Positions 40,425 through 57,927 of a DNA stretch of 64,000 nucleotides are shown in pieces. Numbering within the stretch: the first letter of the stretch is position 1; every line of letters starts with the position of its first letter. Source of the DNA: a virus (taxonomy: Duplodnaviria > Caudoviricetes); the IMG/VR virus record IMGVR_UViG_3300048691_000224; one strand, given 5' to 3'. Under the pieces are notes generated by a model, which had not been told where the DNA came from, made no database searches, and saw only the letters and a list, made by a program, of their open reading frames with translations. The position numbers and the translations under genes were made by a program.

Positions 40425-40432
40425 TATTTATA
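40425..40432 (-). promoter_or_regulatory. T4-type late promoter TATAAATA
   Basis: Exact consensus upstream of the spanins. Confidence 0.75.
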
Positions 40433-40440
40433 CAAAAGCG

Positions 40441-41394
40441 TCAAAACGAGAAGTCAGACTCATACGCCTTACTTTGGCGAGTGGGGACTTGTCTGGGAAT
40501 CGAATCGAACATATTATGCAGCATATTGTCAACCAACATACCAACGTGGCGTTGCCTATCAATTTTATCAAAGAATTCATCCTTGAACCACTGAGGAATC
40601 ATCTCCTCATCTGTCGGGACAGCAATCGCCTTAAACATACGACCGGCGTGTTCCATTTCATATTTTAGTTTGAAAATCTTAATTTTCATACCACTCGATA
40701 TTAACAGCGACTCAGTATCTCCCGCAGCTTGTCTAAAATCATTATATAAAATTGCTGCTGATACATGGCCGGGTAGGCGTGTAGTTGGGTAGTCTCTAAA
40801 CGAGGCTGTGTACTGTTCAATTCCCTTGATACCTTTTGGAAGGCCGAGATCCATTAGATCAATCTCATCAATCATTTCATCACGATATTCCATGATAAAA
40901 TCATCTAGCTCTTCATCAGGGGTTCCTGTAAGCATTTTGTGACACGTAGATCGCAGGAATGCTTTGACGGGGCGGGGGGTCGTAGTCTTGCGCATGTCGA
41001 CCCCCATAGCCTTCAGTTCATCCTTGGCCTTGCCTTCTTTGTCGATCACATGGATGACATACCGCTTCTTCTGAATGAAAAATCCTTTATCAGCAACCAA
41101 TTCTCTACCAGTTTTAATGTGCTGGTCGAACCCGGGTTGTACCAAGAATGCTGATCGATTGTACGCGGGGAATGAGGCATTGATCTCATGACCTATCTTG
41201 TCAGCAATCTTAACTACAAGGTTTGGATTGGCATTGGGTGGGATTATCTCACTGAGTGAACAATACAAACTGTTGTGCACCAATATACCGTTGGCGAAAA
41301 AATTATGTACCCCATCAACCTCAATGTCGTACACATCAAGCTCTTGTAGACCCAAATCAATAATTTCAAAATTATCTGTCTCAACTATATTCAT
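40441..41394 (-). CDS. DNA polymerase B, C-terminal fragment preceded by a 41-aa C-intein (41272-41394)
   Basis: VYDIEVDGVHNFFANGILVHN|SLY; FIQKKRY; KAMGVDMRK. Confidence 0.9.
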   Translation of the reverse strand: MNIVETDNFEIIDLGLQELDVYDIEVDGVHNFFANGILVHNSLYCSLSEIIPPNANPNLVVKIADKIGHEINASFPAYNRSAFLVQPGFDQHIKTGRELVADKGFFIQKKRYVIHVIDKEGKAKDELKAMGVDMRKTTTPRPVKAFLRSTCHKMLTGTPDEELDDFIMEYRDEMIDEIDLMDLGLPKGIKGIEQYTASFRDYPTTRLPGHVSAAILYNDFRQAAGDTESLLISSGMKIKIFKLKYEMEHAGRMFKAIAVPTDEEMIPQWFKDEFFDKIDRQRHVGMLVDNMLHNMFDSIPRQVPTRQSKAYESDFSF

Positions 41395-41401
41395 CTATTT
41401 T

Positions 41402-42475
41402 TTACTCTTCAGGGGGATCACGAGGTGGTAGTTTATATTCTGCACGTATTATGTCAAGCACGTGGCTGGGATCACGATCAAAATCTCGCTCCCACACTAC
41501 TATAGTGCGATAGTTCCGGCTTTGTATGTGGGCAAGTTTTTTAGCGTCTGCGTCCCAACACTGAGATGCGGTTTTTCTGCCTCTACCGCGGAGTGCTTTT
41601 GGGAAGTCGGTTGGACCATATAGCGTTGGATTCCCATGATAGTGATCCCCGTTGAATTCTATACAAATCTTGTGGTTGGTATCAACGTAATCATATTTGT
41701 AAAATCGTCTACCCAACGGGTCAAATGACCCAAATTCGGTATTTTTTGTGGCGTAATATACGTGCTCATCCGGAAGCTGTAAGTCATTGACTATTAAGTC
41801 GAACAATACTTGCGACTTTACGGAATAAAAGTTAAATTGATTTGAGAACTTCTCAACCAATTTCTGAGTAGCAAGCTCAATATCCCCATACCGTTGGATA
41901 TAGTTGTCAATTGTGTGGGCTTTAGATTTACATAGCGCATCCCATACTACCAACCCCTCATCCACCCCATGCTTGTCCTGGAACCACTGTAGGGATACTC
42001 CTGCAGTTCGTTGCTTCTCGACATAACTGGTCCATCTAAGCAACCCCTCTTGTTCACCATGGCGGGCGATCATTCTTTCTTTAGTCTGCTTTCTGGTTGA
42101 GTTGTATTCATCAAACTGATCGAGGGTCCACCCATGTGTACGCGATTTATACACAAATGTATTTTTTTCAGCCATGAATGCCCGACGTGCGGCCCATTTT
42201 GCATCTGCGTAAGCGCCGTATGATAATACGTAGCGGTCATATGTGTGGGATAACCCTCCTTTATGCTCAATAACAATCCTCCAATACCGATCAAACATAT
42301 TAGGTTCGATCTTATGAATTTCATATTTCAAGAAGTTATACGTAAACTTGTGGTGATTTTTGTTCCCACTATCTTCCAATTGCTTACTCAGTTGCTGGTA
42401 TTTAATTAAGTCGATATCTGATATGTCTAGGTTGAATGTAGTTGCTTTATTGCGTAGTGTTCGTAAGGTTAGCAT
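41402..42475 (-). mobile_element. Free-standing Vsr/EDxHD-like homing endonuclease between the polB halves
   Basis: YDYVD...IEFNGDHYHG...WDADAKK...VVWERD; KHG.EEG..W repeats. Confidence 0.75.
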
Positions 42476-42477
42476 GT

Positions 42478-44973
42478 TTATGGAGATACAGATTCGGGGG
42501 TATTTACACTAATCAACTTATCCCCCCTTACTATATTCATCGGTGTTGTGCTTATTATTTCAGTGCCGCGGCGGACTATAATGGAGTGATCAGCTGTTAT
42601 AGTAACCGATGCTCCATTTACCCTAACCTCAAACATGCGTTTTTTGACAGTATGTTTCATGACATAATTAATGGGTTTGGTTACTGGGTTGGACCCATCA
42701 AAACCCACACTCGTTGAGCCGACTACTCGCTTGACATAATTGTTGGTAATCGGGTCGTGTTTTATGAAATCACCTGGCTGCTCCTCGTAAAACTGGGCAA
42801 TAGTTTTTTGAATTCCGTTTACATAAATCGCGGTACCCCCAACAACCGAGTCGGTGTCGCCATAGATCAGACATGGGCTTGCAATCTCGTTGTTGATCGC
42901 CCGTGGGTCTTCATCACTAGTAATTGGGTTGATGTTGTAATCTCCATCTATAATTTCACAACCCTTGCGAATTTGGTGCCCGAGTATGCACCTACCTGTT
43001 GCAGTCACTGATTGCCCCATCCGCTTATCATAGAACCGGAAATTTTGATTGAGTAATGCACCGTATGCTGAATTGAGCTTAATTTTCATCGCATATTGCG
43101 TCATATCTGCGAATTCATACTCTGTCTGCAGTAATGCCGCTTGATGAGCATCAGTCGTTGCTGCTATGGCACCCAATACTTGTTTGGATTGAGCTTGGAA
43201 TTGCTTCCTTGTCGAATACCACCTACCGAGTAATGCTGGAATGATGCCTTCAACATCTTGGCGGAAAACTGTACCGTACCCTGAAATGGCATACTTCAGT
43301 TCAATGAGATGCTCCTTCCACATTCTAGCTGACTTAGTTTCTACTTCCTGAGTTTTTTCCCATCTAAATGTTAATTGGGCGGTTGACCCAGCATTAATCT
43401 CAGTCCACGCAGACTCAAACTCACTGAATTGTCCGATTAACGTCTCGGGTGAAATGTTGACGGTGCGGATTGTATTTGGGTATAGAGAATTTATATCATA
43501 ACAAACTATCCAGTTATGCATACCAGTTTGCGGAACTAACACATATGCACCGGCAGCTTGCCCTTGTTCGTCTAGCTGTTTTGTATCAGGGACCCGAACA
43601 TTTAACTCGTACCAACAGTAATTATTGATAGCCATCTCTGCAGACCGGACAGTACCCACAATGTTTTTGAAATGGCACGTAGATTCATGAATTAGTGTAT
43701 TAGCTAAATTTATAAATTTATACTTCTTATCTAACTCTCGAAGAATTTCAGTGTCACGGCAATTGTACCTCACAAACTTACTAAAGTTGTTGTTGTACAG
43801 ATGGTGCAGAGTGCCTTCGTAATCCAACTTCTTGAATCGCTCGCCGAGATGGTCCTGGGAAACAGTTTCCAAGTTCCACGAGTCTCGATCCTCGACTGTA
43901 AACTTCTTGAATAACTCCATGTAGTCGAGTGTGACGCGGCCATCAAACTGAACAAATAATTGCTCTTGGAAGAATACTTCTTTGGTCTGGAACCACGGCG
44001 CTTTACCTTTTGGAAATGACAGCATCTGCAACCACTCTTTGCCTAACACAATCTCCACTCGTTTAGCGAAGTATGGATCATCAAATCGTGAGGAGTTCCA
44101 ACCAGACAACAAATCTGATTGTTGAATTTCCTCAACGGACCGAGTGAGTAGCTCAGTCTCATTTTTACAGAACACAATTGTAACCTTGGAATCAATATCT
44201 TCAAATAAACTGTAGTCAAACAGTTCTTCGACATTGCATCCTGTCCAGGACTTGGGTGGGACAGAAAAGATGACGTACTCGTCTTTCCAGGTGTGGTAGA
44301 ACGCAATTGAGTTTAGTGGTGCGTATGGATCGAGTGGTGAGCTGAAACCGATTGGCCCATCGTATGTGTACAATGAATTTTTAACCGCCACCCACTTCTT
44401 TACCGGCTCATCCCACACCTCAACATCAGGATCGCTCCTATAATCGCGAAGGTCCCAAACTGTAGCTTCGAAGGATTCTGAACCAATATTGCGAAGTTTG
44501 ATTTTATGGTCCGCGTCGTACTTTTTGGGCCGGTAATCTACCTCGATGTCATAGTATGTTGTGTTGATGTGAGGCAATTCACATTTATAATACAGCGCAC
44601 TCAGCGCCTTTAGTTCAGGTGGAATGTCGCTCTCAAATAAATCAACATCGATTGGTTTGCTATCTAGAAACTTCGACATCTCCTTCTTATTTGAGAATTC
44701 TAGTTCATACAAATCATCACCAAACATTGATTGATATTTGGTAGTTTCATCAATTGCAGTAGTACCAAGCCCCAGAAACTTTTTTAACACTCCATCAGGC
44801 GTTCCTTCTTCTACCGAATCACTAAACTCAGCGTGGGTTGAGTACCAGTCGCTACACTTGATGTAGCAATTGTACAGCGCCCTGACTGTCTTAATCGTCG
44901 GGGCGTGGTTAGGTGTCAGGCGTTGTTCCCAGATGGTTACGTGATCGAAGTGTCTACTAGCTGCAATGTACAT
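42478..44973 (-). CDS. DNA polymerase B, N-terminal fragment ending in a 123-aa N-intein (42478-42849)
   Basis: ExoI YDIEVD, ExoII WNSSRFD, ExoIII YNCRD; YDINSLYP; KIKLNSAYG; YGDTD|SVVGGT. Confidence 0.92.
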   Translation of the reverse strand: MYIAASRHFDHVTIWEQRLTPNHAPTIKTVRALYNCYIKCSDWYSTHAEFSDSVEEGTPDGVLKKFLGLGTTAIDETTKYQSMFGDDLYELEFSNKKEMSKFLDSKPIDVDLFESDIPPELKALSALYYKCELPHINTTYYDIEVDYRPKKYDADHKIKLRNIGSESFEATVWDLRDYRSDPDVEVWDEPVKKWVAVKNSLYTYDGPIGFSSPLDPYAPLNSIAFYHTWKDEYVIFSVPPKSWTGCNVEELFDYSLFEDIDSKVTIVFCKNETELLTRSVEEIQQSDLLSGWNSSRFDDPYFAKRVEIVLGKEWLQMLSFPKGKAPWFQTKEVFFQEQLFVQFDGRVTLDYMELFKKFTVEDRDSWNLETVSQDHLGERFKKLDYEGTLHHLYNNNFSKFVRYNCRDTEILRELDKKYKFINLANTLIHESTCHFKNIVGTVRSAEMAINNYCWYELNVRVPDTKQLDEQGQAAGAYVLVPQTGMHNWIVCYDINSLYPNTIRTVNISPETLIGQFSEFESAWTEINAGSTAQLTFRWEKTQEVETKSARMWKEHLIELKYAISGYGTVFRQDVEGIIPALLGRWYSTRKQFQAQSKQVLGAIAATTDAHQAALLQTEYEFADMTQYAMKIKLNSAYGALLNQNFRFYDKRMGQSVTATGRCILGHQIRKGCEIIDGDYNINPITSDEDPRAINNEIASPCLIYGDTDSVVGGTAIYVNGIQKTIAQFYEEQPGDFIKHDPITNNYVKRVVGSTSVGFDGSNPVTKPINYVMKHTVKKRMFEVRVNGASVTITADHSIIVRRGTEIISTTPMNIVRGDKLISVNTPESVSP

Positions 44974-51336: not shown

Positions 51337-51762
51337 TCACGTTGCTAGTGCTATTTTTGCAAGTAATTTTAACTCATCACTGGTAACTCCTAGCTTAGCG
51401 CACAGTGCGGCTTCTTTCTCAGCTTGCTCTGTAGATAGTTTGAGTTGTTCTTTATCATATACTTTTTGTAGCTTTGCCTGCTCTTTTTGTAGTTTGGTAT
51501 AGGTTGTCTTGTCAACTACACCAACCCTTGGAAATTTACCAGGAAAGTAAGTGATCATGTCGGGGGAAGCAATTTGTTGTTGCAGGGTAATATATTCAGC
51601 TTCTGAGATCTCTGTGGGCTTGTACCCCAAAAATACACTACCATCTGTAGTTCGCATTACACCAATCCACTCACCATTGTCATCTTGATTGTAACACGCA
51701 AGTGTTAGACCTGTTCCAAATGAGTCATTGAGTTCACCTAGTGTGTAATATTTTGTTATCAT
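51337..51762 (-). CDS. Hypothetical protein (possible fibre assembly chaperone)
   Basis: Coupled to the fibre-like gene; C-terminal coiled coil. Confidence 0.55.
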   Translation of the reverse strand: MITKYYTLGELNDSFGTGLTLACYNQDDNGEWIGVMRTTDGSVFLGYKPTEISEAEYITLQQQIASPDMITYFPGKFPRVGVVDKTTYTKLQKEQAKLQKVYDKEQLKLSTEQAEKEAALCAKLGVTSDELKLLAKIALAT

Positions 51763-53168
51763 AGATATGCTCCTCCGCGTGTTACTTTAACTTTCATTGC
51801 CATATTGCCGTGAATTACAGCGTATCCGTTCCAACTATGGGCTTGATATAGAATGCCCCACCATTGAGCGTATACTGTCACCGTTCCACCAGGTGGGATA
51901 ACTTTGAAAAATCTCGCTCCTGATACAGTAGATTCTGTGTAGACGTCGAAGCCGCCAGCACTTCGCGTATTGAGGCCCGAAGAGTACACATCCTGTCTCA
52001 TCGTGCCTTGTAGATTTGGGTCACCATTACCACTGTATCCAGCAGGCATTGTTATATTTAAATTCTCACCGATTGTATAAACCAAACCAAATGCGGCGTT
52101 GGGTAATCCATAATACAAATTGCCGTGTCCAGTGAGGTCTGCTTCAAATAGTACCGATTGATTTGTCGGATTTGTATATGAATAACTTAGATACGCGGGT
52201 GGATTGCTGCCAGAGGGAATTGTAACTCCTCCAGCTTCAGTTGCAAAGTCCCTACCTCGGAAGATTGCTACACCATCACCATTCCCTGTGTCGTATTGAT
52301 ACCATTGGGCACCGACAGCCAGACAAATCCCAGCACCAATCAGTGTGCTGGGGTTGCTAACCCAAACTGCTGGATAGGGTTGCTCAATCGGCCAGACTAA
52401 TTGCCATGTACCAGCTGTGTCGCAGATGTATAACTTATTGACCGCGGTATTGTGCCAGAGCAAACCAATTTCATTTGCTGGTTGATTAGGGCTAACGATT
52501 ACTTCCTCAGGAATTGGCCAGACTAATTGCCAGATGTTATTCACATCACAGATTCTGAGTTGATTAGCAGCGGTATTGTGCCAGAGCAAACCAATTTCAT
52601 TTGCTGGTTGATTAGGGCTAACGATTACTTCCTCAGGAATTGGCCAGACTAATTGCCATGCGTTATTGGTGTCACAAATATACAACGTATTGGTTGCGGT
52701 ATTGTGCCAGAGTAGACCAGTTTCGTACGCTGGTTGAACTGGGCTAACAATCACCTCTTCGGGGGTGGGCCAGACCAATTGCCATGTACCAGCTGTGTCG
52801 CAGATGTATAACTTATTGACCGCGGTATTGTGCCAGAGCAAACCAATTTCATTTGCTGGTTGATTAGGGCTAACGATTACTTCCTCAGGAATTGGCCAGA
52901 CTAATTGCCAGACTCCAACAGAGTCGTACAATTTCAACTCCTGGGCTCCAGTATCATACCACATCTGCCCCGGGGTTGGGTTGACAGGGGGATAATCACT
53001 CGCGAAGTGCTCCATTGTATGGAGCATATTCTCCCAAATCAATTCTCCGTACACTGGAGATCGATACCCAACCATCTTGAGTGATGTTGAGTGGTCGAAA
53101 CTCAGTGGGGGAATTATAATCTGTGGTTTTGTATTGTCGCTATGGTCGACTACGTAGGTTCCTGGCAT
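51759..53168 (-). CDS. Virion fibre-like protein with 42-aa repeats
   Basis: MPGTYVVDHSD...NMLHTMEHFA...PTPGQMWYDT N-module; four repeats. Confidence 0.7.
   Translation of the reverse strand: MPGTYVVDHSDNTKPQIIIPPLSFDHSTSLKMVGYRSPVYGELIWENMLHTMEHFASDYPPVNPTPGQMWYDTGAQELKLYDSVGVWQLVWPIPEEVIVSPNQPANEIGLLWHNTAVNKLYICDTAGTWQLVWPTPEEVIVSPVQPAYETGLLWHNTATNTLYICDTNNAWQLVWPIPEEVIVSPNQPANEIGLLWHNTAANQLRICDVNNIWQLVWPIPEEVIVSPNQPANEIGLLWHNTAVNKLYICDTAGTWQLVWPIEQPYPAVWVSNPSTLIGAGICLAVGAQWYQYDTGNGDGVAIFRGRDFATEAGGVTIPSGSNPPAYLSYSYTNPTNQSVLFEADLTGHGNLYYGLPNAAFGLVYTIGENLNITMPAGYSGNGDPNLQGTMRQDVYSSGLNTRSAGGFDVYTESTVSGARFFKVIPPGGTVTVYAQWWGILYQAHSWNGYAVIHGNMAMKVKVTRGGAYL
52391..52912 (-). repeat. 126-bp in-frame tandem repeat, 4 copies (QLVWPIPEEVIVSPNQPANEIGLLWHNTAVNKLYICDTAGTW)
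   Basis: gccagac anchors at 52391, 52517, 52643, 52769 and 52895. Confidence 0.95.
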
Positions 53169-53172
53169 TTTA

Positions 53173-54030
53173 TTAATTCACAACCAAATTAGTGAGATAT
53201 TTATGCAGATCAGGCAGTCCGCCAATGGAGGTGCCATCAGGGCACACTATTTGCGGGAAGCTTCGAGCGCTTGGAAACTTCTCACTAAAGTCATCACGCG
53301 TGAAGTCAACATCCAACATCTTGGTTATAAATTGTTTATCCTTGTTTGTCAGTAGCGCTTTAGCTTGATCGCACTGTGGACAGCCGGGTTTGGAATATAC
53401 AGTAAATTCTGGAATTCCAACATATCGATCTGCTGAACCAAACATTGGAGCATCATCACCGCTGTATTGGCCCCAGACGTCATCCCAATCACCCTCTGTA
53501 GCACCTTTGGAATACTCAAATACTTTTTGTTCGAAAAAGTTTCCGTGAGTTACGCTATCAATCATCTGCTCTACCCATGGTAGCGGATTCTTTTTAATTT
53601 TGAATATCCCCTTTAATCCAAGGGCGATCAATCGGCGATCTGCAATGTACCTAATATACAACTTCACATCAGCTGCCGTAAGGTCTTTCATTTCACCCAT
53701 CTCAAACGCGAGATCGATAAACTTATCCTCCAAATCAACCATGCGCTCTGCAATTGTATAGAGTTGACTCTTCAGGCTATCTTTCCAGATGTGTCGATTT
53801 TCCTCAATAAACACACGGAACAACTTAATCATAGCGTCTGTATGACAATTACCAGAAATGGATAGTGTGTTAGCATGTCTAATTTGAAACGCTGTACCAG
53901 GGACGCTGAGACAAAACACTTCTGTTGACTGAAGTTCTTTGGTCACTTGTACTGCTGATTTGGGGATCGGTGGTAAGCTACCAGCAATCGCCTGAAGCAT
54001 ATTGATAATATCCGTATTTGTTTTATTCAT
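53173..54030 (-). CDS. nrdB: NrdB C-terminal fragment: 61-aa C-intein (53848-54030), RNR beta C-part and fused glutaredoxin
   Basis: VFCLSVP...SISGN|CHTDAMIKLF; YIADRRL; NFFEQ; YSKPGCPQC. Confidence 0.85.
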   Translation of the reverse strand: MNKTNTDIINMLQAIAGSLPPIPKSAVQVTKELQSTEVFCLSVPGTAFQIRHANTLSISGNCHTDAMIKLFRVFIEENRHIWKDSLKSQLYTIAERMVDLEDKFIDLAFEMGEMKDLTAADVKLYIRYIADRRLIALGLKGIFKIKKNPLPWVEQMIDSVTHGNFFEQKVFEYSKGATEGDWDDVWGQYSGDDAPMFGSADRYVGIPEFTVYSKPGCPQCDQAKALLTNKDKQFITKMLDVDFTRDDFSEKFPSARSFPQIVCPDGTSIGGLPDLHKYLTNLVVN

Positions 54031-54982
54031 TTGTTGTATTCTGAGCACTAGTTAATGTTTTTGCGCGAGCCGCTGCTGCAGCGGCTAGCAGTTTGTCAAT
54101 GTGTTTTATGGTTCTACCTAATTTCCACCCAGTTGGTATCTCAGCTAGCCTACCAATAGTTTTAGATTCAGTGCCGTTGGTTATCCACTGCTTATCGCGC
54201 TTCTTTTGGGTCATCCCAGCCCAGAATCCAATTGGAGGATCTATATTAGGCTGAAGCTTCAGATTGGTTGTGCCATCTGTATAGCAAATTACACCCCTAA
54301 TATTTGGGTGATTTGATACTTGCATCCTTTGGGCAGCAGTACGGATTTGGGGTGGGGGTGGATGTTTACCAAATCTCCACCCAACTGGTAGTTGGGCTGT
54401 TTTTAGCATTTGTGTCGACGTTGTACCATCAGTAATCCACCTAAACTTCCCTACTCGAGTTGCTGAGGCCTTGCGCCTAATCTCTATTGCTTCTTCAGTA
54501 TACACTCGTCCTGTGTTGTTGGGAATACTATGTGGGTGGTCTTGCAACCGCTTGATGTTGCGCCTAGTCACACATTCTAGTTCATCCGCCGAATAGTAAC
54601 TACCACCATTTAATAATCGCCGGGCAGCAGATGTTTTTGCACGCGTAGCGGTAGCTTTTGACCTTGCGGTTTGACGCACATAATCAGGTACACCCGCTAG
54701 TGTGTCTCCACCTTGGCCACCTATTGCTATGTTGTAGGTATCATCCCTTGATACAAAATTAACGTCAACTAGTTGACGTTCTACAGCTCGAGCTTCGTCC
54801 CAAGTGTCACACTCATGCAATGTGATTCTCACAAAGTTATCTCTACCATATTTTTCGACGGCCCTAGCTAACAATATACCCGAACCCAAATACCCATCAA
54901 ATTGATCGGCAAACTGCTTGTGGATCCCCACATATATGCGATCATTGATTACGTTAGTTGTCTGGTACACGATATAATTCAT
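54023..54982 (-). mobile_element. Free-standing GIY-YIG homing endonuclease between the nrdB halves
   Basis: YIVYQTTN...IYVGIH...YLGSG...KYG..NF...E...YN; WITDG/WITNG repeats. Confidence 0.85.
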
Positions 54983-54996
54983 TCAGATTCAAGATG

Positions 54997-55036
54997 TTAC
55001 GTGGTACCATATTTATGTCTTCGTTGTACCACGTAA
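54997..55036 (-). promoter_or_regulatory. 11-bp hairpin with a late-promoter-like CATAAATA in its loop
   Basis: ttacgtggtac / gtaccacgtaa. Confidence 0.6.
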
Positions 55037-55044
55037 TATTCTCT

Positions 55045-56094
55045 TCAGCTCATGTACTCTAGTAGAAATTCCTTCGCCCACGATGAGTCCATTATTGGGA
55101 GCAGTGGCAATACCCACTCCAAAGACAATACACCTTCTTTGGTGAGTCTACACAATTCCTTATGCTTGTCTGTCAATACTTTCAAGGAGCCACTCTTAGT
55201 GCCCGAGCACACGTAACTAAACTCCTCAGTTACAGATTCAATATCCTTCGCCTGAACGTCCTGTATCCGACCATCACCCATCTCTAAAATCATTCTATGA
55301 TTTGGTGATACTGATTGTGAGAAACCTTCACCCTTAAAATGGTACACTGTCGGTACTGTTTTCTTGGTAAGATTGGTTGGAGTCACAAAATTAGTCTGAC
55401 TGGTTTCGGTATCATACTCTAACAGTTCAGTAGATAGTGTGACACATTCGATAGGTAACCACCCATCTAGTGTCATAACTTCTGTGCCGGCAACCAAACA
55501 CTTCTCATCAAGGATCGACCAAGAGATGTTTGAGCCCATTCCAACCATCGTTCCGTGACGGGGGAAGTTCAATAACATGATGAATGATGAAAATAATTGC
55601 ATACCTTCAGTGAATGCTGAGAATACTGCTAGCTGTTGAGCAATGGACTCGGTGTCAGTTCCGATAAAATTCTCAACATATTCGTATTTTTCACGCATCG
55701 CATCATATTCTAAGAACTGATTGTAGATTGTGTCAGGCATTCCTAGCGTTTCCACTAGGTTAGAGTATGCTGCAATATGAGTAGCTTCACGAGCCGCAAA
55801 ACTTAACAACATCATCCGAACTTCTGGTTGGGGAAATACCGGTAGATAATTCATCACATATGCATTTGCTACACTGATGTCACCTTGAGTGAAAAATCTG
55901 AAGATGTGGGTCAAGAAGTTTTGTTCAGACTGTGTTAATTTGGTGTTCCAATCTTTAACATCCTCCAGGAGAGGGGCCTCCCAGTGACCCCAATGCATGC
56001 GTTCGTGATCCATCCACGTTTCGTAGCACCACTGGTAGTTGAATGGCTTGTACGATGGACGTGGGTCTGTTAATTTTAATTTCTTTTTGGACAT
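55045..56094 (-). CDS. nrdB: NrdB N-terminal fragment ending in a 151-aa N-intein (55045-55500)
   Basis: FFTQGD; REATH; FTEGMQLFSSF; WSILDEK|CLVAGTEV. Confidence 0.9.
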   Translation of the reverse strand: MSKKKLKLTDPRPSYKPFNYQWCYETWMDHERMHWGHWEAPLLEDVKDWNTKLTQSEQNFLTHIFRFFTQGDISVANAYVMNYLPVFPQPEVRMMLLSFAAREATHIAAYSNLVETLGMPDTIYNQFLEYDAMREKYEYVENFIGTDTESIAQQLAVFSAFTEGMQLFSSFIMLLNFPRHGTMVGMGSNISWSILDEKCLVAGTEVMTLDGWLPIECVTLSTELLEYDTETSQTNFVTPTNLTKKTVPTVYHFKGEGFSQSVSPNHRMILEMGDGRIQDVQAKDIESVTEEFSYVCSGTKSGSLKVLTDKHKELCRLTKEGVLSLEWVLPLLPIMDSSWAKEFLLEYMS

Positions 56095-56100
56095 AGTAGT

Positions 56101-57927
56101 TTATTGGCAGGCGATACACTCTGTAGAATCAACAGCTTCTGTGGTAGGAGACTGTTCGTCGATTTTAACTCGTTTGATTGTTTTGGAGATTTTTTCAGTA
56201 GATTTAAGTTTCTCACTTCTAAGGTAATATAGCGTCTTCAATTCTTGTTTCCAAGCATTGAAGTGAATGTCGTGCAATACCTTAGTAGTCACGTTAGGTT
56301 TGGTGAACACATTAACACTCTGCGCTTGGTCGATGTGGGGTTGACGATCAGCAGCGAGATCAATGATATGTTGTTGGTCAATTTCCATTGCTGTCTTGAA
56401 CACGTCTTTTGTATGTGCGTCAAATAAATCAGAGTGTTGGATTGACCCATCGTGTGCATTGATGTCCGACCAAATATCATCACGGTCCAACTTTTTATCT
56501 GCAGCACACAGAGCAATAATCAATTTATCAAGGTATGGGTTGCGATGGAAGTTGAATCCAGAGAGTGTGTCCTGACGATAGCAGTTGGCTCTGAACGGTT
56601 CGGCGCTTGGTGAAGTGTTTCCTAGAATCAAACTAGACGACGCATTTGGCGCAAGTGCGCATCTGTGAGAGAATCTAAGTGGTTTGGTCATGTCCCCACC
56701 ACCTTCGATATAGTCGAGGTTTGCTCCACGCTCTACCCCAAGTCTCTCTGAGGATTCGAGTGATTGATCGTCTAGCTGTTTGAATATTTGGATATTCATT
56801 GCTCGCGATTCGGGTGATCCAAACGCAACATTATTTTTTTGGAAATATGCGTGCAGACCAAGCAAACCCAAACCAACTGATCTCTCTCGTTGAGCTGAGA
56901 AGCGAGCTCGAGCAATCGAATCTGGCGCATTATCTATAAAATATTGCAGCACATTATCCAACATTTCCATAACATCAGATATAAACAAGTTGTCGTTCTT
57001 CCACTCATCGTAGTACTCCGCATTTACAGATGATAGTACGCAGATTGCAGTTCGATTTTCATCGACAGGTAGTGTTATCTCAGAGCACAGATTCGACTGT
57101 CGGATTTTCAATCCTAATTTTTTTTGCCAGTGAGGGAGCTTCTTATTTGCGGTGTCGATGAACAGAAAATATGGTTCGCCGGTTTCTTTGCGGAGTTTGA
57201 GCAGTTGAGACCAGAGAGCTTTGGCAGATACCACCTTAGTAACTTCTTTGCTGAATGGATCAATCAGTGGCCAATCATCATTAGCATTACTGTCCTTCAT
57301 ACATCGTTCGATGATGTGCATGAAAGCATCTGGGATATTGACTGCGTGATTCAAATTTGTGCAACGTGTATTAGCATCGCCAGTAGGTTTTCTCATTTCT
57401 AAGAATGGGATAATCTCGGGGTGTGAGATATCCAAATACATGGCGAAACTACCTCTGCGCGTAGATCCTTGTTTGTAGGCCATACTCGCGCTGTCATACG
57501 TCTTCATATGGGCAAGTACGCCAGTAGATTTATCGTCGCTAGTACGAAGGCCAACACCTACGCCAACGCCTCCCCCAAGCATACTCAGAATACAGGTTTC
57601 TTTATAGGTATCAACCAACCCATCAGATGAATCAGGCAAAAAACTAAGGTAGCAGCTAACAGAAAGACCTTTCTTGTTGCGGCCATGTGATAAGATTGGC
57701 GTTGAATAACTCAACCAGTGTTTACTAGCGTAATTGTATAACCGCTGAGCGTGTTCAGGATTGCTAGAAAACTGCTTGGATACTTTAGCGAACCGCTCTT
57801 GTGGACTGACCTCGTCGGAGGTCATATATGATTCTCTGAGCCTCTGTAGACCGAGTTGATCAAACAATGAATCGCGTGAGTAGTCTACGGTAATGCCTGC
57901 TATTGCAGGTGGGAGAGTGGTTGTCAA
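56101..57927 (-). CDS. nrdA: Class Ia ribonucleotide reductase alpha subunit (no ATP cone visible)
   Basis: VSCYL; SNLCSE; CVLSS; APNASSS; EP; DQAQS; TLYY; C-terminal CIAC. Confidence 0.95.
   Translation of the reverse strand: MTTTLPPAIAGITVDYSRDSLFDQLGLQRLRESYMTSDEVSPQERFAKVSKQFSSNPEHAQRLYNYASKHWLSYSTPILSHGRNKKGLSVSCYLSFLPDSSDGLVDTYKETCILSMLGGGVGVGVGLRTSDDKSTGVLAHMKTYDSASMAYKQGSTRRGSFAMYLDISHPEIIPFLEMRKPTGDANTRCTNLNHAVNIPDAFMHIIERCMKDSNANDDWPLIDPFSKEVTKVVSAKALWSQLLKLRKETGEPYFLFIDTANKKLPHWQKKLGLKIRQSNLCSEITLPVDENRTAICVLSSVNAEYYDEWKNDNLFISDVMEMLDNVLQYFIDNAPDSIARARFSAQRERSVGLGLLGLHAYFQKNNVAFGSPESRAMNIQIFKQLDDQSLESSERLGVERGANLDYIEGGGDMTKPLRFSHRCALAPNASSSLILGNTSPSAEPFRANCYRQDTLSGFNFHRNPYLDKLIIALCAADKKLDRDDIWSDINAHDGSIQHSDLFDAHTKDVFKTAMEIDQQHIIDLAADRQPHIDQAQSVNVFTKPNVTTKVLHDIHFNAWKQELKTLYYLRSEKLKSTEKISKTIKRVKIDEQSPTTEAVDSTECIACQ

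Follow-up and report, generated by a model that had tools for sequence, protein, structure and literature searches.

How can a freshwater phage make the small subunit of a class I ribonucleotide reductase (RNR) from a gene that is broken between two residues of one metal-binding motif? This question was raised by IMG/VR virus record IMGVR_UViG_3300048691_000224 (Caudoviricetes), from which a stretch of 64,000 nucleotides (nt), hereafter the window, was analysed as a whole: its nrdB was broken into two same-strand open reading frames (ORFs), with a mobile split intein and a homing-nuclease gene lying between the two parts. The locus is very probably a fractured nrdB, composed of a naturally split intein and a free-standing GIY-YIG gene inside the second Glu-x-x-His (ExxH) of the RNR small subunit, and the match of layout, abutting halves, and junctions is far beyond chance. 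Elements of this kind have already been published, as fractured genes (Dassa 2009, PMC2677866) and as the AceL NrdHF split intein (Hoffmann 2020, PMC7891396), and the locus is a well-preserved relative of AceL NrdHF and not a new kind of element.

Layout and junctions of the fractured nrdB

The locus was composed of three consecutive minus-strand ORFs: 55045-56094 (349 amino acids, aa), 54023-54982 (319 aa), and 53173-54048 (291 aa from GTG, or 285 aa from the likely start ATG 54030). The first ORF matched the Pfam family PF00268 (RNR small chain) at profile positions 4-193 and the third matched it at 193-281, the two halves abutting exactly. The junctions read ...SILDEK/CLVAGTEV... and ...TLSISGN/CHTDAM... 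(a slash marks the border between host protein and intein), the C-intein ending with Gly-Asn, and uninterrupted phage NrdBs displayed DE-x-(M/L)-H at the insertion point. Intein Cys1 was encoded by codon 55500-55498, the terminal Asn by codon 53850-53848, and the +1 Cys by codon 53847-53845. The N-half carried the Asp, the first Glu-x-x-His, the radical Tyr, the third Glu, and the Glu of the second motif, while the C-half carried the last His only; because the Glu and His of the second motif lay on different halves, a complete metal site on one chain needs the joining of Lys198 to the +1 Cys.

A first-pass annotation, made from the letters of the window alone, had proposed that a split intein interrupts the second ExxH and that splicing rebuilds DEKCH, and its junctions agreed exactly with those given by the abutting PF00268 halves and by alignment with the intact NrdB of contig L003 (see below). 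Its two further readings also held: the C-intein ended with Gly-Asn without a penultimate His, a trait common to the active AceL NrdHF intein (G145), and the gene between the nrdB halves was of the GIY-YIG family (PF01541, 28 bits against a cut-off of 22.6).

The genes were arranged head to tail on the minus strand as nrdA, nrdB-N/N-intein, GIY-YIG gene, and C-intein/nrdB-C/glutaredoxin, with 6 nt between nrdA and nrdB, then 62 nt, and then an 8-nt overlap, from which we infer that nrdA, the nrdB halves, and the nuclease gene are co-transcribed. The features were as follows.

56101-57927, minus strand: nrdA, RNR large subunit, 608 aa, no ATP-cone (PF02867, E 1.3e-102; PF00317), intact in the window
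55501-56094, minus strand: nrdB N-extein, residues 1-198 (PF00268 positions 4-193, E 3.2e-44)
55048-55500, minus strand: N-intein (IntN), 151 aa, with Cys1 (CLVAGTEV) and block B S-P-N-H-R-M; stop codon at 55045-55047
55048-55209, minus strand: N-terminal part of a LAGLIDADG vestige, IntN residues ~98-151 (hhalign probability 89%)
54997-55036, minus strand: hairpin (11 perfectly paired bp, 18-nt loop) in the spacer that follows the IntN stop codon and precedes the GIY-YIG gene
54023-54982, minus strand: free-standing GIY-YIG homing endonuclease gene, 319 aa (PF01541, 28 bits; phrog_314 'homing endonuclease', 2.6e-33)
53848-54030, minus strand: C-intein (IntC), 61 aa (from its sequence and from alignment with the IntC of L006, L009, L010, and L012 and with 6ZGQ)
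53404-53847, minus strand: nrdB C-extein, from the +1 Cys and then the iron-ligand His (CHTDAM) through the C-terminal tail GDWDDVW (PF00268 positions 193-281, E 3.7e-17)
53176-53403, minus strand: glutaredoxin domain (CPQC) fused to the NrdB C-terminus (PF00462, 3.2e-08)
53833-55543, minus strand: mobile unit plus diverged borders (alignment with L003)

Within the N-extein, the iron ligands were the D of FTQGD, the ExxH of EATH, the E of FTEG, and the E of the second ExxH, and the radical Tyr lay in HIAAY. The IntC start ATG 54030 overlapped the nuclease-gene stop as ATGAATAA, and IntC contained the head helix TDIINMLQAIAG (the last block of the vestige), block F F-C-L-S-V-P-G, and block G S-I-S-G-N. 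The glutaredoxin was a part of the C-extein outside the mobile element, and it was fused likewise in the intein-free allele of L003.

Comparison of filled and empty nrdB alleles

The IMG/VR contig L003 agreed with the window at 99.2-99.3% identity across 8 kb around the locus and carried an intact 422-aa NrdB-glutaredoxin reading DEKVHADSM; alignment of the two delimited the inserted element as 53848-55500 (1653 bp). The N-extein was identical to the L003 NrdB at 198/198 residues, and the C-extein differed from it only by V>C, A>T, and S>A at +1, +3, and +5. Base differences were clustered at the borders: the upstream border had seven synonymous differences within 43 nt (55504-55543), and the downstream border had nine in its first 15 nt (53833-53847), changing V-H-A-D-S into C-H-T-D-A; the stated total within -43 to +15 nt of the site was 17, and the nearest other differences lay ~540 nt off on each side. 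Such clustering is expected under either co-copying of the flanks during homing or alteration of the nuclease target.

Both allele types were recovered from further samples. A 15,515-base contig (record 23) of an independent freshwater metagenome (X3) spanned the whole filled locus, and contigs of X14 ended exactly at 53832 and 55501. In the freshwater metagenome X15, one contig joined 53832 to 55501 via exactly 15 L003-type bases, and other contigs came from inside the element; therefore, filled and empty nrdB alleles coexist in nature, and both occur in this one metagenome.

Differences between L003 and the window also extended to nrdA. The L003 nrdA (L003:882-3994) was fractured by a different split intein (...AVS/CFESN... 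and ...VVHN/CYLSF...); an HNH-type homing endonuclease gene (326 aa) accompanied it on the opposite strand. The window nrdA was intact, and its base differences from L003 were clustered at 57610-57628, within the stretch 57610-57655 and beside the site of the L003 nrdA intein. Several elements of this kind are gained and lost within the phage lineage.

Relation of the intein to AceL NrdHF

IntN was searched exhaustively against 1.84 billion representatives (E<=1e-3), and 124 relatives were found. The only solved structure that it matched by phmmer in the PDB was 6zgq_A, the AceL NrdHF intein (E 1.7e-18 over IntN 2-103). IntC gave chance matches only in the same phmmer search, the segment being short and the 6ZGQ construct carrying C124A and N146A, and its relation to 6ZGQ was visible by direct alignment. 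Pfam and PHROGs searches with the intein halves alone recognised no family (Hint_2, E 0.14; no LAGLIDADG family).

AceL NrdHF was reported as the first naturally split class 3 intein, none of 1701 class 3 inteins having been found split; it came from a phage-like contig whose fractured nrdHF has its halves separated by a GIY-YIG gene and shows the flanks SIRDE/A...TGN/SMHVE (Hoffmann 2020, PMC7891396). Its junctions were verified by mass spectrometry, its fragments associate with a dissociation constant of 82 nM, and it splices with a half-time of ~4 min via block F Cys124; it has Met for Trp in the class 3 triplet and lacks both C-terminal histidines, relying partly on Arg69, and restoring His at G145 abolished all trans-splicing activity (PMC7891396).

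The window intein and AceL NrdHF shared the fractured RNR beta-subunit gene of a phage-like contig, the same D-E-x-x-H motif, the GIY-YIG gene between the intein halves, block B S-P-N-H-R-M (Arg B:11, Met B:12), block F C-L-S-V-P-G (Cys F:4), and the Gly-Asn end, but they differed in several respects: (i) residue 1 was Cys in the window and Ala in AceL, and the +1 residue was Cys and Ser, respectively; (ii) block G was S-G-N compared to T-G-N in AceL (G:5 Ser versus Thr); (iii) the window insertion lay one codon later (DEK/C...N/CH versus DE/A...N/SMH); (iv) the halves measured 151 + 61 aa in the window and 98 + 48 aa in AceL, the extra ~65 residues being the LAGLIDADG vestige; and (v) the window had a redoxin at the NrdB C-terminus and not NrdH-NrdF. 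Judged by alignment, the residues shown to matter in AceL were all present in the window intein, with Ser replacing Thr at G:5.

Across the relatives, the intein clade occupied the D-E-x-x-H motif in three states, namely E/C...N/C-x-H, E/A...N/[STC]-x-H, and E-x/C...N/C-H. The Ala that precedes V/L in some relatives was considered as an extein residue and rejected, since the verified AceL junctions make it intein residue 1. Trees of the ~100-residue N-domain were poorly resolved: the window grouped with P0005 and P0006 (97/93), and AceL with P0019 (91/82); these trees are too weak to settle the order of LAGLIDADG decay, splitting, and vestige loss.

In P0033, P0039, P0040, P0043, P0056, and P0089, inteins of the same clade were inserted close to the first Glu-x-x-His of NrdB (Pfam position 93), so that both NrdB iron-ligand motifs serve as intein insertion sites; P0017 carried two inteins. 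Two inteins were likewise seen in an RNA polymerase subunit 2 of a giant-virus metagenome-assembled genome (L004:2-5725), the second of which (CLVPETEVMTLDGW…VYCIEVP…WTGN/S) was related to the window intein (E 7e-8) and shared with it Cys1, the block F Cys, and the Gly-Asn ending.

LAGLIDADG vestige on both intein halves

By hhalign, a profile of the extra segments was aligned with one built from the endonuclease domains of 38 full-length relatives (E 2.2e-6, probability 89%) in three collinear blocks: (i) a motif-1-like helix, LTDKHKELCRLTKEG versus ..LLIAxQADG; (ii) a motif-2-like helix, SSWAKEFLLEY versus W..xFxxELxxWDG, which stopped before the catalytic Asp-Gly; and (iii) the helix after motif 2, which formed the head of IntC (see above). 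The endonuclease-domain profile itself found solved LAGLIDADG enzymes (VMA intein 7QSS, 1.8e-5; 2DCH, 1.3e-4; PI-PfuI, 0.088). A hidden Markov model of this domain gave marginal E-values of 0.005-0.04 against the window tails alone, yet above all shuffles. The window retained three helical blocks of a full LAGLIDADG domain, the motif-2 Asp-Gly and both beta-sheets being missing.

The template for this alignment came from contiguous LAGLIDADG inteins (P0009, P0022, P0052, and P0070), which belonged to the same clade and shared Cys1, the block F Cys, T-G-N/C, and the D-E-x-x-H site with the window intein; in contrast, each was a single piece of 320-335 aa that contained a complete LAGLIDADG domain, none had a GIY-YIG gene, and all were inserted directly after the Glu. 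The IntN tail and IntC head were conserved in the split relatives aligned, and the split point with the GIY-YIG gene followed the motif-2 helix and preceded the helix after it. In three one-piece relatives (P0028, P0032, and P0049), tail and head were joined directly, equally reduced and with nothing between; VAGGYIDGSD in P0032 was considered as a LAGLIDADG motif and discarded, the hhalign register placing it at the helix after motif 2.

The earlier proposal that these flanks are the remnants of a LAGLIDADG domain broken by the GIY-YIG insertion thus stood in its first part only. They are LAGLIDADG remnants, but breakage of a whole domain did not follow: the remnant was only ~65-75 aa and was found unbroken in P0028, P0032, and P0049, and because of this unbroken occurrence elsewhere, the GIY-YIG gene was not shown to have destroyed a working LAGLIDADG domain.

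GIY-YIG gene, proposed homing, and possible control signals

In the GIY-YIG protein, the catalytic domain was N-terminal, and the repeat W/C-x-T-[DN]-G...P-x-G-[WF] occurred three times in the C-terminal region. The catalytic residues recognised, namely the conserved Tyr, Tyr-x-Gly, Glu, and Asn of the GIY-YIG domain (Y6, Y17, G19, E68, and N84), were invariant in the alignment of the nuclease proteins (A2). The window nuclease was 39-45% identical to the nucleases at the same place in L005, L006, and L007 and 23% identical to the GIY-YIG gene in the nrdA of L006. This nuclease would cut the intein-free nrdB of co-infecting relatives, and during repair the element would be copied, together with short flanks, into the broken allele; indirect support for such homing at the element-free site comes from the occurrence of filled and empty alleles and from the clustering of base differences in the flanks.

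The hairpin in the 62-nt spacer had a folding energy of -16.7 to -18.1 kcal/mol (z -2.7 to -3.2), and its loop held CATAAATA, one mismatch from the T4-type late promoter TATAAATA. Strong hairpins were present at the same place in L005, L007, and L012 (z -3.5 to -5.3), and exact TATAAATA at the same place in L007, L008, L010, and L012. This arrangement resembles, as a suggestion, the hairpin plus late-promoter control of T4-type homing endonuclease genes that has been noted for fractured genes (PMC2677866). The hairpin as a terminator or as a ribosome-site trap was discarded (no U-tract; start codon not covered), and a scan for sigma-70 promoters and terminators gave nothing above shuffles.

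Splicing chemistry: class 3 or class 1

The window intein was compared with AceL NrdHF for the features of class 3 inteins: (i) a Cys stood at block F:4 (C2:4), the window F-C-L-S-V-P-G aligning with AceL F-H-C-L-S-V-P-G; (ii) residue 1, which in class 3 is no Cys, Ser, or Thr, was a Cys aligned with AceL Ala1; (iii) the W/M-C-T triplet (B:12, F:4, and G:5) read Met-Cys-Ser, with Met as in AceL and a Ser conservative to the Thr that occupied G:5 in split relatives and in all contiguous relatives aligned; and (iv) a penultimate His was lacking and Arg was present at B:11, the intein ending with S-G-N and block B containing H-R-M. In AceL, T144A slowed splicing tenfold (PMC7891396). Classical class 3 cis-inteins (mycobacteriophage Bethlehem DnaB and Msm/Mch DnaB-1) resembled the window intein in having the block F:4 Cys and, adjacent to the block B His, a hydroxyl residue at G:5; unlike it, they are unsplit, lack a nucleophile at residue 1, and carry Trp at B:12 and a penultimate His. 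By the operational definition (no residue-1 nucleophile), the window intein is not class 3.

On the analogy with AceL, the class 3 route would still be the slightly favoured one for the window intein, because the block F Cys was invariant (it was present, with or without Cys1, in every relative that was aligned without being selected for it), residue 1 was variable (Cys; Ala in P0007, P0011, P0019, P0025, P0026, and AceL; Pro in P0028), and AceL with its Ala1 splices via the block F Cys. Along this route, the block F Cys (IntC Cys40) would attack the Lys198-Cys199 bond to give a branched thioester, the acyl group would then move to the +1 Cys, and Asn61 would cyclise without a penultimate His, aided by the block B Arg. 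Alternatively, Cys1 would start a class 1 route by forming the first thioester, and the block F Cys would be structural, regulatory (e.g., a disulfide partner), or a relic. This alternative, which concerns the chemistry only, has an appreciable chance without being the one we would choose: Cys1 was present as in most wider-clade relatives including the full-length LAGLIDADG forms, block B had the class 1-like S-x-x-H, and B:12 was Met and not Trp, but the block F Cys was kept whether or not Cys1 was there, F:4 is usually Asp in class 1 inteins (PMC7891396), and close relatives had Ala1 or Pro1, the splicing of Ala1 AceL via the block F Cys meaning that the clade can dispense with a residue-1 nucleophile.

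A more speculative idea, to which we give a rather small chance, is that the window intein keeps the ancestral state of the AceL-type class 3 split inteins, combining a class 1 nucleophile (Cys1) and a class 3 nucleophile (the block F Cys) in a single active site beside the +1 Cys, with the LAGLIDADG helices re-used as an affinity-raising clamp. If true, the intein could splice by either route, or be disulfide-gated among its three cysteines on a glutaredoxin-bearing polypeptide.

Association of the halves and rival explanations

A complex was predicted from residues 190-349 of the N ORF and residues 1-75 of the C ORF, together with three controls. The IntN-IntC pair scored 0.90 and the best of the three controls 0.00; because similar complexes have been solved (6ZGQ and other split inteins), this result indicates resemblance to those complexes and is not evidence that this pair binds. 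The score mark was reached by 51/78 solved complexes and by 2/108 mismatched pairs, the runs shared at least 92% of contacts, and the predicted local distance difference test (pLDDT) value of the partner was 81. The model placed one face of the motif-2 helix (residues 340, 341, 343, 344, and 347) in contact with IntC head residues 12 and 15, and the vestige may thus add to the interface between the halves. In the proposed working of the locus, the NrdB halves would meet through the intein halves, the LAGLIDADG-vestige helices on both adding predicted contacts; trans-splicing would join Lys198 to the +1 Cys, giving a 422-aa NrdB-glutaredoxin with the motif D-E-K-C-H; and only this spliced product would hold all six metal ligands on one chain.

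Several points weigh against a functional fractured nrdB with class 3 splicing. The insertion was recent relative to L003, and intact frames alone are therefore no proof of function; the search for another nrdB was limited to the 64-kb window; no Shine-Dalgarno sequence was visible before the nuclease gene or the C-half; RNA-library contigs (X22) covered both junction regions, but such contigs cannot show transcription; Cys1 places the intein outside the operational class 3 definition of Hoffmann et al., and G:5 was Ser instead of Thr; and the splicing, nuclease, and RNR roles are assigned from sequence. Three of these points, namely a recent insertion with little time for visible decay, the Ser at G:5, and the window-limited search, would equally suit a decaying copy, in which splicing has been lost, neither NrdB piece is active, and the phage uses the host RNR or an nrdB outside the window. 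Such decay is nevertheless improbable: the catalytic positions were all kept and the reading frames were intact, the split arrangement persisted in loci with only 35-47% intein identity (see below), the nearest characterised homologue, AceL, splices within minutes, the adjacent nrdA was intact and would be useless without NrdB, and another intact nrdB, which the first-pass annotation had named as the finding that would make this a decayed copy, was not found within the 64-kb window.

Joining of the halves might also be dispensable, with the intein halves merely docking the NrdB pieces so that the enzyme works without ligation. There is a precedent in Aeromonas phage Aeh1 (Crona 2011, PMC3045599; PMC2677866): insertion of a homing endonuclease gene (mobE) has likewise divided its RNR gene nrdA into two parts, both in one operon, but no intein is involved, the halves assemble non-covalently via insertion-created tails, and the nuclease is of the HNH type. 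The predicted association of the window halves would agree with docking of this sort. It is, however, hardly to be expected here: a single metal-binding motif is cut between its Glu and its His, without splicing that motif would still contain a 212-residue domain, and nothing would explain why the splicing residues have been conserved. Trans-splicing of a fractured nrdB remains the preferred reading.

Comparison with other fractured genes

The arrangement recurred on other contigs. On contigs L005-L012, from seven relatives, nrdB-N/IntN was always followed by a homologous GIY-YIG gene, and where the contig reached, IntC/nrdB-C came next with its start overlapping the nuclease-gene stop. Counting these contigs, at least seven metagenomic loci besides the window had this arrangement, with an intein identity to the window of 35-47%, and NrdB N-halves ending in this intein formed at least 14 sequence clusters. 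The sequences indicate that intein and nuclease gene diverged together, and their persistence argues for long-term function. The nrdA of L006 (L006:1-6472) had an intein and was also fractured by a split intein plus a GIY-YIG gene, with the fractured nrdB directly after it, giving two fractured genes side by side.

All marks of a fractured gene (Dassa 2009) were found in the window nrdB: abutting same-strand host parts, N- and C-intein ORFs with Asn/Cys, and a free-standing nuclease gene between. The published fractured genes (gp41-1, NrdJ-1, IMPDH-1, NrdA-2, and others; PMC2677866) shared with it the split intein, the separation of the two halves by a free-standing GIY-YIG or Vsr-like endonuclease gene, hairpins preceding that gene, overlapping frames, and phage origin, but NrdB was not among the listed host proteins, and none was described as class 3, a class then undefined (PMC2677866).

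A second fractured gene with a different intervening gene had also been claimed for the window, and it proved real at polB (40441-44973), with a nuclease of only tentative type. The N ORF ended with YGDTD/SVVGGT..., and the C ORF had an Intein_splicing match and VHN/SLY; the split intein (123 aa + 41 aa) was canonical class 1 (Ser1, D at F:4, and VHN/S), and the intervening gene encoded 357 aa (phrog_22677, with a weak PD-(D/E)xK-type Pfam match). BLASTP of the nrdB intein against the polB intein gave no similarity (E > 3), placing them in different families and saying nothing on cross-reactivity. Exact TATAAATA was also seen at 40432 and 46571, on the same strand as polB.

Significance

Natural split inteins are the main tools for protein ligation, and AceL NrdHF belongs to a sizeable family of fractured phage nrdB genes. 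The distinctive traits of the window locus were the Cys1/Cys+1 active site, the LAGLIDADG vestige on both halves, the family size, and the filled/empty polymorphism. The natural variants (Cys1, Cys+1, and vestige) suit three questions: how class 3 chemistry arose, what sets the affinity of intein fragments, and how a free-standing nuclease gene takes over an intein whose own nuclease has decayed. With empty and filled alleles in 99%-identical phages that co-occur in one lake sample, intein homing could be measured in a natural setting. From the viewpoint of phage biology, the result is an ordinary one.

Neighbouring genes

The window NrdA was ~50-55% identical to phage NrdAs, and the nrdB region had no match in a megablast search against phage records. 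The glutaredoxin sat after the NrdB C-terminal tail that normally docks on NrdA, and the same C-terminal fusion was found in Stenotrophomonas phage ANB28, Caulobacter phage CcrBL9, the metagenomic protein P0025, and others. The ORF downstream of nrdB (51759-53168, 469 aa) contained five tandem copies of a ~42-aa unit (…WQLVWP.PEEVIVSP.QPA.E.GLLWHNTA.N.LYICD…), and metagenome contigs had rearranged joints at 52822-52912 within it, which suggests repeat variation between strains.

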